From Candidatus Woesearchaeota archaeon (GTDB taxonomy: Archaea > Nanobdellota > Nanobdellia > SCGC-AAA011-G17 > PNOQ01), in the NCBI GenBank assembly GCA_043812195.1, contig JBDRML010000029.1:48263-112262 (forward strand): a stretch of 64,000 nucleotides of DNA, written 5' to 3'. Position 1 is the first letter of the stretch. Each line of letters opens with the position of its first letter. Below, piece after piece: positions 12,934-61,341 of the stretch. The notes beneath the pieces were generated by a model. The model saw only the letters and a list, made by a program, of their open reading frames with translations, was not told where the DNA came from and ran no database searches. The position numbers were made by a program, and so were the translations under genes.

Positions 12934-13062
12934 TGTTATCAATAATCTTCGGAACTATTATCCAATTTTCTTATAATGCAAGTTTCCCCCTTTACATTAC
13001 GCATTTAAATACAAAAAAATAAGCAAAAACTTTATAAACAATTCCAATTCTCAAATTCTGTA

Positions 13063-16000
13063 ATGGCAGAAAAATCAGTAGAACAAATAAAAAAAGTAAT
13101 GAATAACCCAAGCCATATAAGAAACATCGCTATCGCAGCCCATATCGATTTTTTTTGAGATAAATTCTCAAAAGACGAGTGCATGGGAAATGCATAGCAC
13201 CAGATTCAAGGCTCATTCTAAGAGATGGAACTATGTTAACTGCTAAAAAATTATTTAACTTAGCAGAGAAAAAAGGAACAAAATTTGAAGAAACGAAAGA
13301 CCATATAATTTATGATACTAACTCATTAAATTTAGAAGCATTTTCCCTAAACAAAACTAATGGAAAATTAGAAAAAAAACCAATACAACTAGCCTGGAAA
13401 TTAAAAGGTGGGGACTTAATAAATATTAAATTAAGAAACAATTTCAACATTTCCACAACACCAGAACACAAATATTTAGTCTTAGAAAATTTAGAGTTTA
13501 CAGAAAAAGAAGCTAAAGATATAAAATTAGGAGATAGAATAATCTGCCCAAGAAAGCTTGAAACTAATTCAAATATTAACATAAAACGCACAATTCTACT
13601 AAAATTAGCTGAAAAAAGATTTTACGTTAAAGTAAACAAAATCTTAGGAGAAAAAATAAAAAAATTCGTTCTGAAAGAAAAAGAAACAATAAAAAAAATA
13701 AACAAAGAAATAAAGTATAAATCATTTTATCATGGTTCATGGCAAAATAGATATTTATTAAAAGACTTAATAGAAATTTCAAGTTTAATAAATATAAACT
13801 TGGAGTATTTGTATAACAATATAGAAACAATAATTTATAGAAGCGGAGCTCAAAGAGGAAAAAGCTCGCTGCCAACAAAATTACCACAAAACTTTCAAAA
13901 CTTTTATTATCTAGCAGGATTGTTTGTAGGAGATGGACATCATAAAAAATTCATAGTCGGAAAAAATGAGTTAAAATCTAAATTTGTAGAAATTTGCAAT
14001 GAATTAGGAATAAATGTAACATATAGAAATTATGAATACAGAACAGAAGAAATAGTAACAAACGCTACCTTATTAGAAATATTAAACTCATTATTTGATT
14101 ATCCAAAAGTCAAAAAAAGCCATAATGTAAAAATATCAGAATTTCTTCTACTATCTCCAAAAAAATATTCTTCAAAATTCTTAAGAGGATACTTCGATAC
14201 TGATGGATGTGTAGAAAAAAGCAGAAGAGCAGTAACAATATCGTCTGCCAGTGATAAAATGATAGCAGATTTAAGTATGTTTTTATTAAGATTCGGTTGC
14301 ATACCAATCATAGAAAAAGACAACACAATAACAATTAGTGGACAATCCATGATAAATTTTATAGCAGAAATAGGATTTGAAATTAAAGCAAAAATAGCCA
14401 AAGCAAACTCCATAAAACAAACAATAATCGGAAGCATGGTTTCAGATGTTATACCAGTAACACATAGTAACGGAATGATTTCACTACAAAAAAACTTCAC
14501 CAATTCAGAAAAATTAATTAATTTTTGTGAAAAAAATGATATCAGCATAGAAAATATAAGTAAAATATTAAGTAAAGATATCTCATACATAGAAGTAAAA
14601 GCTATAGAAACAAAAAATGAAGAATTTGTATATGACTTCACAGTAAAAGACAACCATAACTTTGCTGCAGAAGGTATGATTATTCATAATACCACATTTT
14701 CAGACAATCTTTTAGCAGGTGCAGGCATGATTTCTAAAGAACTAGCAGGTAAACAATTAGCCTTAGATTTTCACGAAGATGAGGCAACAAGAGGTATTAC
14801 AATAGATTCAGCTAGCGTATCTATGCTTCACACAGTAAAGGGAGAAGATTACTTAATCAATTTAATAGACACACCAGGTCACGTAGATTTTGGTGGAGAT
14901 GTTACTAGGGCTATGAGAGCAGTTGACGGTGCAATTGTATTAGTAGATGCAGTTGAAGGAATAATGCCTCAAACAGAAACAGTTCTAAAACAAGCTCTAA
15001 GAGAAATGGTAAAACCAGTTCTTTTCATAAATAAAGTTGACCGTTTAATCAAAGAAGTTAAACTAACACCACAAGCAATGCAAGAAAGATTCATTAAAAT
15101 TATATCAGACGCTAATGGGTTCATTGAAACTTTTGCACCAGACGAATTCAAAAAGAAATGGCAATCAAACGTACAAGACGGAAGCGTAGCTTTTGGTTCA
15201 GCATTTCATAATTGGGCATTAAGTTTCCCATACATGCAAGAAAAAGGAATAAGCTTCAAAGATATTATAGATGCTTATGAAAAAGAAGATTGGAAAATTT
15301 TAGCAAAGAAAGCACCATTACATGAGGTTGTTTTGGGTATGATAATTAAACACCACGTAAATCCAATCACAGCACAAGCATACAGAATTCCAAAAATATG
15401 GAAAGGAGATTTAGATACAGAAATAGGAAAATCTTTATTAAATTGTGATCCAAAAGGACCTGTAGCATTTATAGTAACAAAAATAGTAATAGATAAACAT
15501 GCAGGAGAAGTATCTGCAGGAAGATTATTCTCAGGAACATTAAAACAAGGTGATGAAGTTTGGCTTAACATGGGTAAAAAGAAAGTTAGGTTACAACAGG
15601 TATCAATTTACAAAGGCGCACAAAGAACTGCTTTTAATGAAATTCCAGCAGGAAACATAGCAGGTTTAGTAGGATTAAAAGATACATTCGCAGGTGAAAC
15701 TATATCTTCAGAACCAATGGAACCTTTCGAAGCAATTAAACATATCTTTGAACCTGTAATCACAAAATCCATAGAAGCTAAAAAAGCATCAGACTTAGCA
15801 AAATTAATTGATGTTTTAAAACAAGTTGGAAAAGAAGATCCAAGTATCAAAATAGAAATCAATGAAGAAACTGGAGAAAATTTGATGCATGGTATGGGAG
15901 AATTACATTTAGAGATTATAGAAAACAGAATTAAATCTGAAAAAGGTTTAGATGTAACAACTTCAGAACCAATCGTTGTTTACAGAGAAACAGTTTCAAA

Positions 16001-16760
16001 AGTAAGTGCAGAAAAAGAAGGTAAAAGTCCAAATAAGCATAATAAATTCTATATGGTTGTAGAACCTCTAGAAGATAGTGTGTATGATGCAATAAAAGCA
16101 GGAGATTTACCAGAAGGTAGAATAAAGAAAAAAGATACAGAAACTATTCAAAAATTAGTGAAATTAGGATATGATGCCAAAGAAGCTAAAAATGTAAGAC
16201 AAATTTACAAAGGAAACATGCTAATTGACAACACAAGAGGTATTGTTCATATCGGAGAAGTTATAGAAATGATTATGGATGCTTATCAACAAGTTATAGA
16301 CGCAGGTCCTATTTGTAGAGAACCTTGTGGAAAACTAAAAGTAAGAATTATGGATATGAGACTACACGAAGATGCAATTCATAGAGGTCCAGCACAAGTT
16401 TATCCTGCTATCAGAGAATCAATAAAAGAAGCAATGGCAGATGCTAAATCTCACTTACTAGAACCTATTCAAATTGTACAAATAGAAAGTCCAGCAGAAT
16501 ATTTAGGAGAACTATCAGCATTAGTTCAAAATAAAAGAGGACAACTATTAAATGTAGATCAAGAAGGTGAACACATTACTGTAAAAGCAAAATTACCAGT
16601 AGCAGAAATGTTCGGCCTAGCATCAGATTTAAGATCAACAACATCCGGAAGAGGAGTATACTTCATAGTAGATCAAATGTATGAGAAATTACCAGAAACT
16701 CTACAAGAAAAAATCAGAAAACAAATAAGATCAAGAAAAGGTTTAAGTGAAAACGCTTAA
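13063..16760 (+). CDS. fusA: elongation factor aEF-2, join(13063..13149,13182..16760), with a predicted 32-nt BHB intron and an intein; mature protein ~721 aa
   Basis: Exon 1 MAEKSVEQIKKVMNNPSHIRNIAIAAHID joins HGK-[intein]-TTFSD. Also RGITI, DTPGHVDFG, NKVD and the diphthamide loop HEDAIHRGPAQ. Confidence 0.93.
13150..13181 (+). other. predicted BHB mRNA intron (32 nt) in the EF-2 G1 motif
   Basis: Outer helix CCCAT/ATGGG, central helix ATCG/CGAG (3 of 4 pairs), bulges AT|T and TG|C, inner 10-bp stem TTTTTTGAGA/TCTCAAAAGA. Removal restores D|H in frame; the unspliced frame hits TGA. Confidence 0.82.
13191..14690 (+). mobile_element. intein (500 aa) with LAGLIDADG homing endonuclease in the EF-2 P-loop (HGK/T)
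   Basis: Starts CIAPDS, block B TTPEHK, LAGLFVGDG and FLRGYFDTDG, ends VYDFTV..NHNF...IIHN followed by Thr. Confidence 0.95.
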
Positions 16761-27158: not shown

Positions 27159-27917
27159 TTGCCATACACCACAAAATCATTTATAAAGTTAAAAATCAAT
27201 GCATCAAACATGAATCTATCAGAAAGAGGAAAAAGGAATGTAAGAATAAGATGGAATAGAATACATCAAAAAGAGATTGATTATATAAGGAAAAATTTAG
27301 ATAAAACTTTTAATTTTAAATCTAGGTTATGTGGTTACTTAGCAGGAGATGGCAATATTCTTACTGCTAATAGCAAAACATGTACTCATTATACAATTCG
27401 TTTTTTCCCAGATCATTATTCACTAATTAAACCATTTAAAGAAGCGTTTATCAAAACATATAATAAAAATCCAAAAGTGAAAAAATTAAAAAACTATTAT
27501 TTTATAACTATTGATTCCAAACCAATAGTATATGATCTCTTGTCACTAGTTGAATTTGGTACTTCAAATTGGAGTATTCCAAATAAAATTTTAACCAATG
27601 ATAAAAATAAAATAGAATGGTTAAGAGCATTTTTTGATGCTGAAGCACATATTCATGAAAAATATATTAGAATTCAATCAGTTAATGGAAAAGGATTAAA
27701 ACAAGTAAAAGAATTATTAAACCAATTTTCTATTAATTCCAAAATTTATGAATACGTTCCAAAAAATAAAAAATGGAATAAGGTGTACATACTAAATATT
27801 TTAAGGAAAAAAGATAAAATAAATTATTTAAAATTAATAGGATTTAATCACACCATAAAGCTTAAAAAGTTAAATAAAAATCTTGATTTTGCCTTAAATA
27901 AAGCCGCGGTCGCGTAA
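27159..27917 (+). CDS. free-standing LAGLIDADG homing endonuclease (likely ATG start 27210), 3' end overlaps tRNA-Ser(GGA)
   Basis: LCGYLAGDG and WLRAFFDAEA; the TAA stop at 27915-27917 lies in the tRNA D-loop. Confidence 0.85.
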   Translation: MPYTTKSFIKLKINASNMNLSERGKRNVRIRWNRIHQKEIDYIRKNLDKTFNFKSRLCGYLAGDGNILTANSKTCTHYTIRFFPDHYSLIKPFKEAFIKTYNKNPKVKKLKNYYFITIDSKPIVYDLLSLVEFGTSNWSIPNKILTNDKNKIEWLRAFFDAEAHIHEKYIRIQSVNGKGLKQVKELLNQFSINSKIYEYVPKNKKWNKVYILNILRKKDKINYLKLIGFNHTIKLKKLNKNLDFALNKAAVA

Positions 27918-28020
27918 TCTGGTATCGCACAGATCCTTAAAAGAAATAAAATTTTTATGGAGTGTAAGCCTGGAAAGCCTGACCCTTTTGGGTGTCTGGG
28001 TTCAAATCCCAGTCGCGGCG
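27903..28020 (+). tRNA. tRNA-Ser(GGA) with a 35-nt BHB intron at 29/30 (27933-27967)
   Basis: Acceptor GCCGCGG/TCGCGGC plus G73. After splicing the anticodon arm is CAGGC-CTGGAAA-GCCTG. Long variable arm, T arm CTGGG-TTCAAAT-CCCAG. BHB helix GCAC/GTGT with bulges AG|A and AA|G. Confidence 0.9.
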
Positions 28021-41987: not shown

Positions 41988-42075
41988 CTATTCGACCATT
42001 CAAGTTAGAGTTGTCTAAGTTGTTCCAGTTGGAGTTAAGATTCAAGTTCCTGTTAAGGTTCAGCCTGGAAAGGCC
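41988..42075 (-). repeat. DGR template repeat (TR), 88 nt, 11 AAY codons, 29 adenines
   Basis: GGCCTTTCCAGGCTGAACCTTAACAGGAAC...AATGGTCGAATAG aligns without gaps to two VRs, with all mismatches at TR adenines. Confidence 0.95.
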
Positions 42076-42193
42076 ACCACTTCATTATTCTCATGAGATA
42101 CTAAATGTTGCAGTTGAATTTTATGTATCAACAGACTTGTAGCCTAGCCCTTAAGACCAGGAATTAGAATAGACAAGTATTAATTTTTAAAGT

Positions 42194-50492: not shown

Positions 50493-51233
50493 ATGAGATA
50501 TAAACTAGATAAGAGAAATGGTTTAATATTACCAAAAAATAAATCAACACTCTTAGCCGAAATAGTTGGAGCCATATTTGGAGATGGATATATGTCAGAC
50601 AGAAAAAAAGATGGATTCTCTTTAAAACTGTTTGGAAACTTAAAAAAGGATTGTAGATACATATTATTCTTAAAAAATAGTATAAAAAATATCTTTAATT
50701 TAAAAAATATCAAAATATCGAGAAATCAACAAAATAATTGTATTAAACTTTGTGTTTATTCAAGAACATTATGTGAATTTCTACATGAAGAATTACAAGT
50801 GCCATATTCACCAAAATTAAATCTCAAAATTCCAAGTTGGATAATAAATAACAAAGAATATTTTATTTATTTCATCAGAGGTTTATTTGATACTGATGGT
50901 TGTGTAACAATTCAAAAAGATAAGAAGTACAGATATCATGTGATAAAAATTTCTTGCAAAAAAAGTTTAGCTCTTTCATTAAAGGAAAATTTATTAAAAA
51001 TAAACATAAAATCATTTATATGTAAAAAGGGGTATAGAGATAATTACGATTTAATAGTAAAAAGAAAGAAAGAGGTAATCAAATGGGTAAAAATCATAGG
51101 TTCGAACAATTATAGAAACATAGAAAAATTAAAAGAAATAAAAGACAAGATTTATATAGAGAAAATAGATACTATTCCTTATAAAGCTGAGACCGGGACC
51201 ATAGCTCAATCTGGTAGAGTGACCGATTCTTGA
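50493..51233 (+). CDS. free-standing LAGLIDADG homing endonuclease, 3' end overlaps tRNA-Trp
   Basis: LAEIVGAIFGDG and FIRGLFDTDG; the TGA stop at 51231-51233 lies within tRNA intron 1. Confidence 0.88.
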   Translation: MRYKLDKRNGLILPKNKSTLLAEIVGAIFGDGYMSDRKKDGFSLKLFGNLKKDCRYILFLKNSIKNIFNLKNIKISRNQQNNCIKLCVYSRTLCEFLHEELQVPYSPKLNLKIPSWIINNKEYFIYFIRGLFDTDGCVTIQKDKKYRYHVIKISCKKSLALSLKENLLKINIKSFICKKGYRDNYDLIVKRKKEVIKWVKIIGSNNYRNIEKLKEIKDKIYIEKIDTIPYKAETGTIAQSGRVTDS

Positions 51234-51318
51234 AAAAGAAGTCAATGCTCCAGACCGGTTGATACTTAACAGTTATCTGTAAGTAGCCGAAATGGGGGTT
51301 CAAATCCCTCTGGTCTCA
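51195..51318 (+). tRNA. tRNA-Trp(CCA) with two BHB introns: 30/31 (51226-51246, 21 nt) and 45/46 (51262-51291, 30 nt)
   Basis: Acceptor GGGACCA/TGGTCTC. Spliced anticodon arm ACCGG-CTCCAGA-CCGGT, T arm GGGGG-TTCAAAT-CCCTC. BHB helices TGAC/GTCA and CGGT/GCCG with 3-nt bulges. Confidence 0.87.
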
Positions 51319-61237: not shown

Positions 61238-61341
61238 CGCCGAGACTGGGATTTGAACCCAGGAGTCCCGAAGGACCTAGATTAGCAATCTAGTGCACTA
61301 ACCAGGCTATGCGTTCGAGGATTTATTCTATCTATCTCGGC
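61238..61341 (-). tRNA. tRNA-Ser(GCT) with a 20-nt BHB intron at 8/9 (61314-61333)
   Basis: Acceptor GCCGAGA/TCTCGGC plus G73, anticodon arm CTAGA-TTGCTAA-TCTAG, variable arm GTCC-TTCG-GGAC, T arm CTGGG-TTCAAAT-CCCAG. BHB helix CGAG/CTCG with bulges AT|A and AA|C. Confidence 0.88.

Follow-up and report, generated by a model that had tools for sequence, protein, structure and literature searches.

A probable bulge-helix-bulge mini-intron within the P-loop codons of the elongation factor 2 gene of a groundwater archaeon and its relatives

Background

Bulge-helix-bulge (BHB) introns in archaeal coding sequences are known from the cbf5 pre-mRNA of Desulfurococcales and Sulfolobales (Watanabe 2002; Yoshinari 2006; Yokobori 2009, PMC2738675), where cleavage is predicted between the second and third bulge residues (PMC2738675). 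A BHB-flanked segment in the 5' untranslated region of the HVO_1309 mRNA of Haloferax volcanii has been shown in vivo and in vitro, in a paper of 2020 which names cbf5 as the sole other case on record (PMC7714728); reviews and structural papers cite the same three cbf5 reports (PMC12397907, PMC5829648, PMC6379350). In this work, we focused on the gene of elongation factor 2 (EF-2) in a 64,000-nt stretch (hereafter the window; contig JBDRML010000029.1 of assembly GCA_043812195.1) from a groundwater archaeon, Candidatus Woesearchaeota, whose genome (G000) comprises 938 kb in 45 contigs and is 90 % complete. The P-loop codons of this gene are interrupted by 32 nt that very probably form a BHB mini-intron. 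A preliminary description of the locus, made from its sequence, knew of no BHB intron in EF-2, and no report of one was found in the literature searched (subscription journals and supplements were outside its reach).

A second system is relevant to the way in which such an insert could enter a gene. In the collaborative homing described for cyanophage psbA, the endonuclease gene lies outside the intron, beside the gene whose intron splits the endonuclease target; the intron shields the allele that carries it, and the enzyme can mobilise the intron (PMC6083498).

Results

Structure of the EF-2 locus

Exon 1 of the EF-2 gene (13063..13149, 29 codons; all features described for this gene are on the + strand) opens with the start codon ATG 13063, reads MAEKSVEQIKKVMNNPSHIRNIAIAAHID, is alignable to the N-termini of uninterrupted homologues and ends within the first half of the P-loop. 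The frame then continues with FF and a TGA at 13156-13158. Exactly 32 nt (13150..13181) set apart GAT (Asp, 13147-13149) and CAT (His, 13182-13184), and exon 2 starts with CAT GGG AAA, i.e. HGK (13182..13190), the final residues ahead of an intein. The remainder of EF-2, from TTFSDN... to the stop (14691..16760), carries the GTP_EFTU, D2, EFG_III, EFG_IV and EFG_C domains. In the open reading frame (ORF) listing the gene is split into a 31-aa ORF (13063-13158) and a 1193-aa ORF called from GTG 13179, which reads V-HGK-C... and within which Pfam finds the complete EF-2 domain set.

The unconstrained minimum free energy (MFE) fold of 13130-13196 (-18.8 kcal/mol, z = -3.45, with 0/200 shuffles equally stable) has an outer helix of 5 bp (CCCAU/AUGGG) followed by a 3-bp helix (UCG/CGA); bulges of 3 nt on the 5' side (AUU) and of 4 nt on the 3' side then lead into an inner stem of 10 bp closed by a loop of 5 nt. 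Read as a BHB motif, the outer, exon-exon helix is formed by CCCAT (13139..13143) and ATGGG (13183..13187, in exon 2), and the central 4-nt helix by ATCG (13144..13147, in exon 1) and CGAG (13176..13179, in the intron), in which three positions pair and the remaining one is an A.G mismatch. The 5' bulge ATT (13148..13150) and the 3' bulge TGC (13180..13182) place the predicted cuts at 13149/13150 and 13181/13182. The inner hairpin (13151..13175) has a 10-bp stem, 13151-13160 with 13166-13175 (one G.U), and a 5-nt loop. Both bulges sit 3' of their central-helix strand, which is the canonical geometry; the two 3-nt bulges flanking a 4-bp helix are present in a relaxed form (3/4 pairs), and both flanking helices, outer (5 bp) and inner (10 bp), are backed by covariation. 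A cut between the second and third bulge bases would join GAT to CAT and restore AHIDHGK exactly. The insert is single-copy, as no further copy was found in G000 with up to 7 mismatches allowed, and Rfam has no family at 13139-13187.

Most of this had been put forward in the preliminary description, which took ATG 13063 as the start, read IRNIAIAAHID, 32 extra nt with an in-frame TGA and then HGK, and observed that the ORF track truncates the gene; each of these elements is in place. The fold it had drawn (CCCAT/ATGGG, ATCG/CGAG, bulges ATT and TGC, a 10-bp stem) is the shape recovered by the MFE calculation. Its cut after the second bulge nucleotide, giving GAT/CAT and AHIDHGK, follows the rule stated for cbf5 in PMC2738675 and falls here in the exact register.

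Inserts in related genomes

Of the EF-2 genes in 61 related genomes the majority are uninterrupted, and four have inserts at the same place. An order-wide screen of 240 genomes, using an uninterrupted EF-2 N-terminus as query, gave an EF-2 match in 223 genomes. Among the matches listed (150 of 253 rows), many begin only at residue 24-32 or hold in-frame stops, and 60 flagged regions were taken for inspection; as these were chosen because they had been flagged, the insert counts are minima and not frequencies. Of the 223 EF-2-matching genomes, at least 36 (G000 included) carry a 30-36-nt insert in the P-loop codons. Counted in nt from the Ala codon of AHIDHGK, the inserts occupy five positions within a span of 15 nt: position 6, between His and Ile (2 genomes); position 8, within the Ile codon (7 genomes); position 12 or type A, between Asp and His as in G000 (20 genomes); position 19, within the Lys codon (6 genomes); and position 20, within the same codon (1 genome).

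Several alleles deserve separate mention. G178 (L062; tallied at position 8) has a 31-nt BHB mini-intron at each of positions 8 and 19, with 11 nt between the two. The EF-2 of L044 (G037) is 10 nt short in the P-loop region, near base 418: IRNIAI is out of frame with IDHGK, and no insert is present. An error of assembly, an intron loss gone wrong or a real lesion could account for this gap. Many of the EF-2 mini-introns share an inner-stem core, ...T(A/G)AG - loop - CT(T/C)A..., even across different positions, and this core also provides the in-frame stop. Common descent or selection for early termination may be reflected in this core.

The BHB geometry was examined at 34 loci with splice points set by protein homology alone, the criteria being three or more of the four central-helix pairs together with three or more inner pairs. 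The required register satisfies this geometry in 31/34 loci, against 1.75 % (171/9766) of the registers obtained by shifts of no more than 8 nt on either side, and it is the single best of 288 registers in 29/34 loci. All four central pairs are formed in 16/34 loci, and three of the four in another 16/34. An earlier, simple BHB scorer was dropped as too loose, uninterrupted genes having reached the scores of real cases.

Covariation was analysed on 18 position-12 sequences. Paired cells amount to 83.7 %, against 69.2 +/- 1.5 after shuffling (0/500 shuffles reach the observed value), and double-changed cells to 49 against 18.2 +/- 3.3 (0/500), the sequences being mutually related, so that these shuffle figures are not probabilities. 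Sliding the partner by 1-3 columns leaves 25-44 % paired. Outer helix pairs are retained in 89 % of cells in these 18 relatives, and the inner stem has both-sided changes in 6/8 tested pairs. A synonymous exon difference, ATC/ATT, tracks CGA/CAA in the intron, with C-G in 12 sequences and U-A in 5. RNAalifold recovers the outer and inner helices de novo, with compensatory changes in 8/12 pairs. The outer helix requires the codons GCC-CAT...CAT-GGN, and at least 4/5 of its pairs can form in 17/18 position-12 alleles vs 5/26 uninterrupted alleles; exon codon choice is what builds this predicted helix.

A search with the exon pattern through one genome per species (185,579 species) matched 89 stretches and returned 80 loci, 26 of them true EF-2 and 54 chance matches (53 by filter plus one bacterial false positive). 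The true EF-2 loci are labelled Woesearchaeota, Nanoarchaeota, Aenigmatarchaeota (2) or 'archaeon', and one is labelled Methanosarcinales. As a control, BHB geometry was found in 23/26 true EF-2 loci vs 3/53 chance matches.

Intein and endonuclease genes

Directly after HGK, 9 nt downstream of the mini-intron, begins a 500-aa intein with a LAGLIDADG homing-endonuclease domain (13191..14690; Intein_splicing 3e-28, LAGLIDADG_3 1.9e-15). Two interruptions hence fall inside 12 codons of the EF-2 gene, one in the DNA/RNA (the 32-nt insert) and one in the protein (the intein). The intein has Cys as its first residue (codon 13191), reads CIAPDS...IIHN/T with His-Asn at its end and Thr next, and contains both Hint and endonuclease domains. 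As both LAGLIDADG motifs retain the acidic residue (LAGLFVGDG, YFDTDG), its endonuclease may be active. Homologous inteins occupy the same K/T site in at least 30 other alleles, and those of seven relatives are 44-61 % identical to the window intein over the full length; EF-2 inteins may already be named in the intein lists of PMC4760082. In 17/20 intein-bearing EF-2 genes (L167-L171, L173-L184) we observed AHIHHGKC, with His replacing the P-loop Asp of AHIDHGK. On reading the DNA, 18 intein-bearing alleles proved uninterrupted, 17 with AHIHHGKC and one with AHTDHGKC.

Free-standing LAGLIDADG genes occur next to EF-2 in relatives. At six intron-bearing loci, a 390-405-aa LAGLIDADG ORF ends 25-40 nt ahead of the EF-2 start. 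When the order was searched with the free-standing protein and the matches were compared with the EF-2 coordinates, 10 genomes proved to carry such a gene, or a remnant of one, immediately upstream of EF-2, and in 8 of these 10 EF-2 is intron-bearing, at position 12 (G204, G222, G207, G158, G055 and G232) or at position 6 (G007 and G003). The two genomes with uninterrupted EF-2 have decayed remnants upstream of it, at G012:C2:54329-55288 (4 in-frame stops) and G107:C6:35987-36322 (3 in-frame stops). All five full-length, stop-free copies and the shorter open copy of G007 lie beside intron-bearing EF-2, and the decayed copies are divided between intron-bearing (2/4) and intron-less EF-2 (2/4); these counts are drawn from kin and are not independent. 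Remnants beside intron-less EF-2 are a prediction of the homing cycle after loss. The window has a single LAGLIDADG domain, that of the intein; over 194 residues the intein and the free-standing proteins share 26 % identity (E 3e-11).

The X2 and X3 DNA contigs presented below match the window from 13064 on, and the sequence directly upstream of the EF-2 start differs. This strain-level breakpoint lies exactly at the start of the EF-2 gene, the place at which relatives carry the endonuclease gene.

Splicing enzymes, tRNA introns and neighbouring features

Both enzymes of the proposed splicing route are encoded in G000, each by one gene: the splicing endonuclease EndA (4.7e-27, contig C3) and the RNA ligase RtcB (1.2e-144, contig C8). 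ARAGORN, run on G000 with introns allowed, called 27 tRNAs and gave introns to 15. The cut rule (second/third bulge residue) fits 7/15 of these introns; the remaining 8/15 calls have odd anticodon positions and look unreliable, and several tRNAs have implausible anticodon positions and are probably multi-intron genes. In the window, Rfam tRNA genes lie at 27903-28020 (118 nt), 51195-51318 (124 nt) and 61246-61312 (67 nt, partial model match), the two long ones (118 and 124 nt) escaping the default mode of ARAGORN.

A genome-wide scan of G000 for frame-joining BHB motifs gave 21,857 raw matches, 1005 joined open frames and 60 candidates past a stricter filter, and recovered EF-2. Inspection by eye of 15 of these 60 candidates revealed no convincing intron, the recognisable ones being gene boundaries or tRNA-adjacent; the scan is of low specificity in DNA of 29 % GC and of low sensitivity, and other mRNA introns may exist.

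A TATA-like box read from the sequence, TTTATAAA (13031..13038, +), lies 25 nt ahead of the EF-2 start codon, a position which suggests an EF-2 mRNA that is leaderless or has a short leader. Kinase-like genes are found upstream of EF-2 in the window, and a match to the Rfam RT-16 RNA, of 51.3 bits vs a gathering score of 50, was observed at 42055-42161 (-).

Discussion

A spliced mini-intron as the favoured interpretation

We consider it very probable that the 32 nt at 13150-13181 are a BHB mini-intron of the EF-2 pre-mRNA that is spliced out; the cut and the ligation themselves we infer. In the mechanism that we propose, the exon bases CCCAT and ATGGG would pair as the outer helix, exon ATCG and intron CGAG would pair as the short central helix, and the 10-bp hairpin of the intron would supply the inner helix. 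EndA would cut between the second and third base of each 3-nt bulge, i.e. after 13149 and after 13181, and RtcB would then ligate GAT to CAT, giving an mRNA that reads AHIDHGK (junction CATATCGAT^CATGGGAAA). The spliced mRNA would encode the 721-aa EF-2 precursor plus the 500-aa intein, which protein splicing would remove, and an unspliced mRNA would be limited to a 31-residue peptide.

Several points weigh against this interpretation. The motif is relaxed, with the A.G mismatch in its 4-bp helix and the 4-nt 3' bulge of its MFE fold. The sole EndA ORF, of about 176 aa, is alpha4-like by length, and alpha4 EndA is classically strict for canonical BHB motifs (PMC6379350); loop-bearing alpha4 EndA is described in DPANN archaea, the lineages with small genomes under which records of relatives are placed, alongside many disrupted tRNA genes (PMC5829648). 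Three of the 34 loci (L056, L057 and L063) fail the strict geometry: L057 fits on manual reading if a 4-nt 3' bulge is permitted, and for L056 and L063 no alternative register was found. Finally, a look-up in public runs found no RNA run with the EF-2 insert stretch; one metatranscriptome, from the same study as a matching DNA run, gave no match, which says nothing on expression.

Alternative explanations

The insert adjoins a 7-T run in a metagenome-assembled genome, and could for that reason stem from faulty assembly or sequencing or from a homopolymer error, a possibility that we regard as practically nil. Logan contigs from three DNA runs of three studies (X1, X2 and X3) carry the same 32 nt and span 13150-13181 with 0 gaps, the X1 contig having 0 differences across 13069-13261 and those of X2 and X3 having 6 and 4 substitutions, respectively, over ~500 nt. 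DNA lacking the 32 nt, which by the preliminary description would have counted against the intron, did not appear in them. A one-base change of the T-run restores no readable frame, as that description had also argued: one T more gives 33 nt with an in-frame TAA, and one T less gives 31 nt with the frame still off. Moreover, homologous inserts of differing sequence are present in dozens of other assemblies. A further idea is that of a decaying EF-2 pseudogene which the 32 nt have disabled. In favour of a dead gene, the ORF contains a stop and a frameshift, and in a genome 90 % complete another EF-2 copy could be missing. The present gene is nevertheless the sole EF-2 found, a second intact copy having been sought following the preliminary description, and the two further matches in this 90 % complete genome are weak and to other GTPases. 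The 29 codons of exon 1 and 1193 codons downstream are open, and all five EF-2 domains are recognised with good scores; this arrangement recurs in at least 35 other genomes, in genes that are otherwise intact and with exon 1 differences that preserve the peptide; and the inserts covary in a structure-preserving manner. The chance that the gene is dead appears minute to us.

The insert might alternatively stay in the mRNA and be dealt with at translation, through bypassing of the T4 gene 60 type, through frameshifting, or as two separately translated pieces that assemble. Bypassing in gene 60 features a stop codon soon after take-off and a stable hairpin. The EF-2 insert likewise has an early stop and a stable hairpin, and in the window a GTG lies 3 nt ahead of exon 2. 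Bypassing, however, needs matching take-off and landing codons. A ribosome landing on GAC 13174-13176, the one Asp codon close to the 3' end, would be out of frame and would run into TAG, and bypassing fails because no landing codon restores the HGK frame. Every one of the 33 unique inserts holds a stop in the exon-1 frame, including 8/8 of those whose length is divisible by 3, so the inserts are not readable as P-loop insertions. In 21/33 inserts there is no in-frame ATG, GTG or TTG ahead of exon 2, which is therefore not translatable alone in these alleles, and a P-loop split over two chains would be unlikely to bind GTP. Nor does a translational explanation predict a 4-bp helix with 3-nt bulges in the exact register at five positions, or covariation between exon and intron; we give it a small chance. 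A very small one is left to processing by an enzyme other than EndA and RtcB, or to a hairpin that is mainly a regulatory or stability element whose removal is secondary. In favour of such processing, the role of EndA and RtcB is assigned here from sequence, and a relaxed motif coexists with an EndA that resembles the strict alpha4 type. Against this, the geometry is the one recognised by EndA, the cut rule fits tRNA introns of G000, EndA and RtcB are both encoded, as the preliminary description had asked to confirm, and cbf5 demonstrates the same route on an mRNA (PMC2738675).

Possible role of homing endonucleases

We see about even chances that the EF-2 P-loop keeps such inserts because they interrupt the DNA site targeted by a LAGLIDADG homing endonuclease. 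As a general idea, to which we give somewhat less than an even chance, BHB mini-introns in archaeal protein genes might act as 'immunity inserts' against such endonucleases. An insert would split the endonuclease target within a sequence otherwise unable to change, such as the EF-2 P-loop; it would be tolerated only because the tRNA-splicing enzymes take it out of the mRNA; and it would spread together with the endonuclease gene, as in collaborative homing, and then outlast it. Five insertion positions clustered in 15 nt shortly before the intein site, the gene with two introns, and the open endonuclease genes beside intron-bearing EF-2 would fit this idea.

Other observations speak against it. 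The window holds no free-standing LAGLIDADG gene and G000 gave 0 matches to one, so that the adjoining endonuclease gene of collaborative homing is present in 8 relatives and absent here. Intron and intein are not associated, the intron being also present in 5/31 of the intein-bearing alleles examined, which indicates neither attraction nor exclusion. Exon 1 bears no sign of a recent conversion tract; that of the window is closest to intron-less members of its own family (0.72-0.75 identity) and not to intron-bearing genomes. If the endonuclease idea is right, the intron may here be a relic of an endonuclease invasion, since the only endonuclease present is inside the intein.

If mini-introns did act in this way, homing endonucleases would drive intron gain in archaeal protein genes. 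The five clustered sites and the neighbouring endonuclease genes offer a testable route for the entry of introns into such genes, one that bears on the old question of the first introns in protein-coding genes. Whatever their origin, a core translation factor, EF-2, appears to depend on EndA splicing, when published archaeal coding-sequence cases comprise cbf5 only, and one essential protein would here need RNA splicing plus protein splicing. At least 36 genomes of the order have the intron, as do two records under the label Aenigmatarchaeota; in these genomes gene callers therefore truncate EF-2 systematically, and the truncation has consequences for annotation, completeness estimates and marker-gene phylogenies.

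Comparison with known systems

BHB introns of archaeal rRNA and tRNA genes can encode LAGLIDADG homing endonucleases, e.g. I-DmoI. These introns and that of EF-2 have in common a tie between BHB introns and LAGLIDADG homing enzymes; they differ in that the former span hundreds of bases with the enzyme gene inside, whereas the EF-2 intron is 32 nt long and contains no ORF. The layout of cyanophage psbA matches that of the 8 relatives with an adjoining endonuclease gene but not the window itself, which has no free-standing gene. Moreover, the psbA system combines a self-splicing group I intron with an enzyme of the Endo VII family, whereas on the EF-2 side stand a 30-36-nt BHB intron needing host enzymes and a LAGLIDADG protein with a putative target in the EF-2 P-loop.

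In eukaryotes, the unconventional splicing of HAC1/XBP1 mRNA is a regulated stress switch carried out by the nuclease Ire1. RtcB has a role in XBP-1 splicing (PMC8718801). The HAC1/XBP1 event resembles the proposed EF-2 route as a non-spliceosomal splicing of mRNA by a stem-loop-specific endonuclease followed by RtcB ligation, and differs from it in its nuclease, Ire1 instead of EndA, and in being a regulated stress event. HVO_1309 shares with the proposed EF-2 route an mRNA as substrate of the archaeal splicing endonuclease; its segment, however, lies in the untranslated leader, where no reading frame is interrupted.

The closest likeness is to cbf5. In both genes the cut is predicted between the second and third bulge residues, the intron lies in codons of a highly conserved catalytic site, which in cbf5 is the codon of the catalytic Asp, and it is present in some lineages and absent from others. 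The EF-2 intron is nonetheless no member of the cbf5 intron family, defined by the cbf5 gene, the Crenarchaeota and the catalytic Asp codon, even if it would work alike: its host gene is EF-2, and its lineage is DPANN (relatives labelled Woesearchaeota/Nanoarchaeota). One insertion position is known in cbf5, vs five within 15 nt in EF-2, and endonuclease genes adjoin the intron-bearing EF-2 of relatives. While cbf5 introns have been linked to a hetero-oligomeric EndA, one alpha-type EndA gene is found here, and while cbf5 splicing was demonstrated by cDNA, that of EF-2 is predicted from DNA. With these differences, EF-2 is in all likelihood a new host gene for the cbf5-type splicing route, and one in which this route would be widespread across its order.

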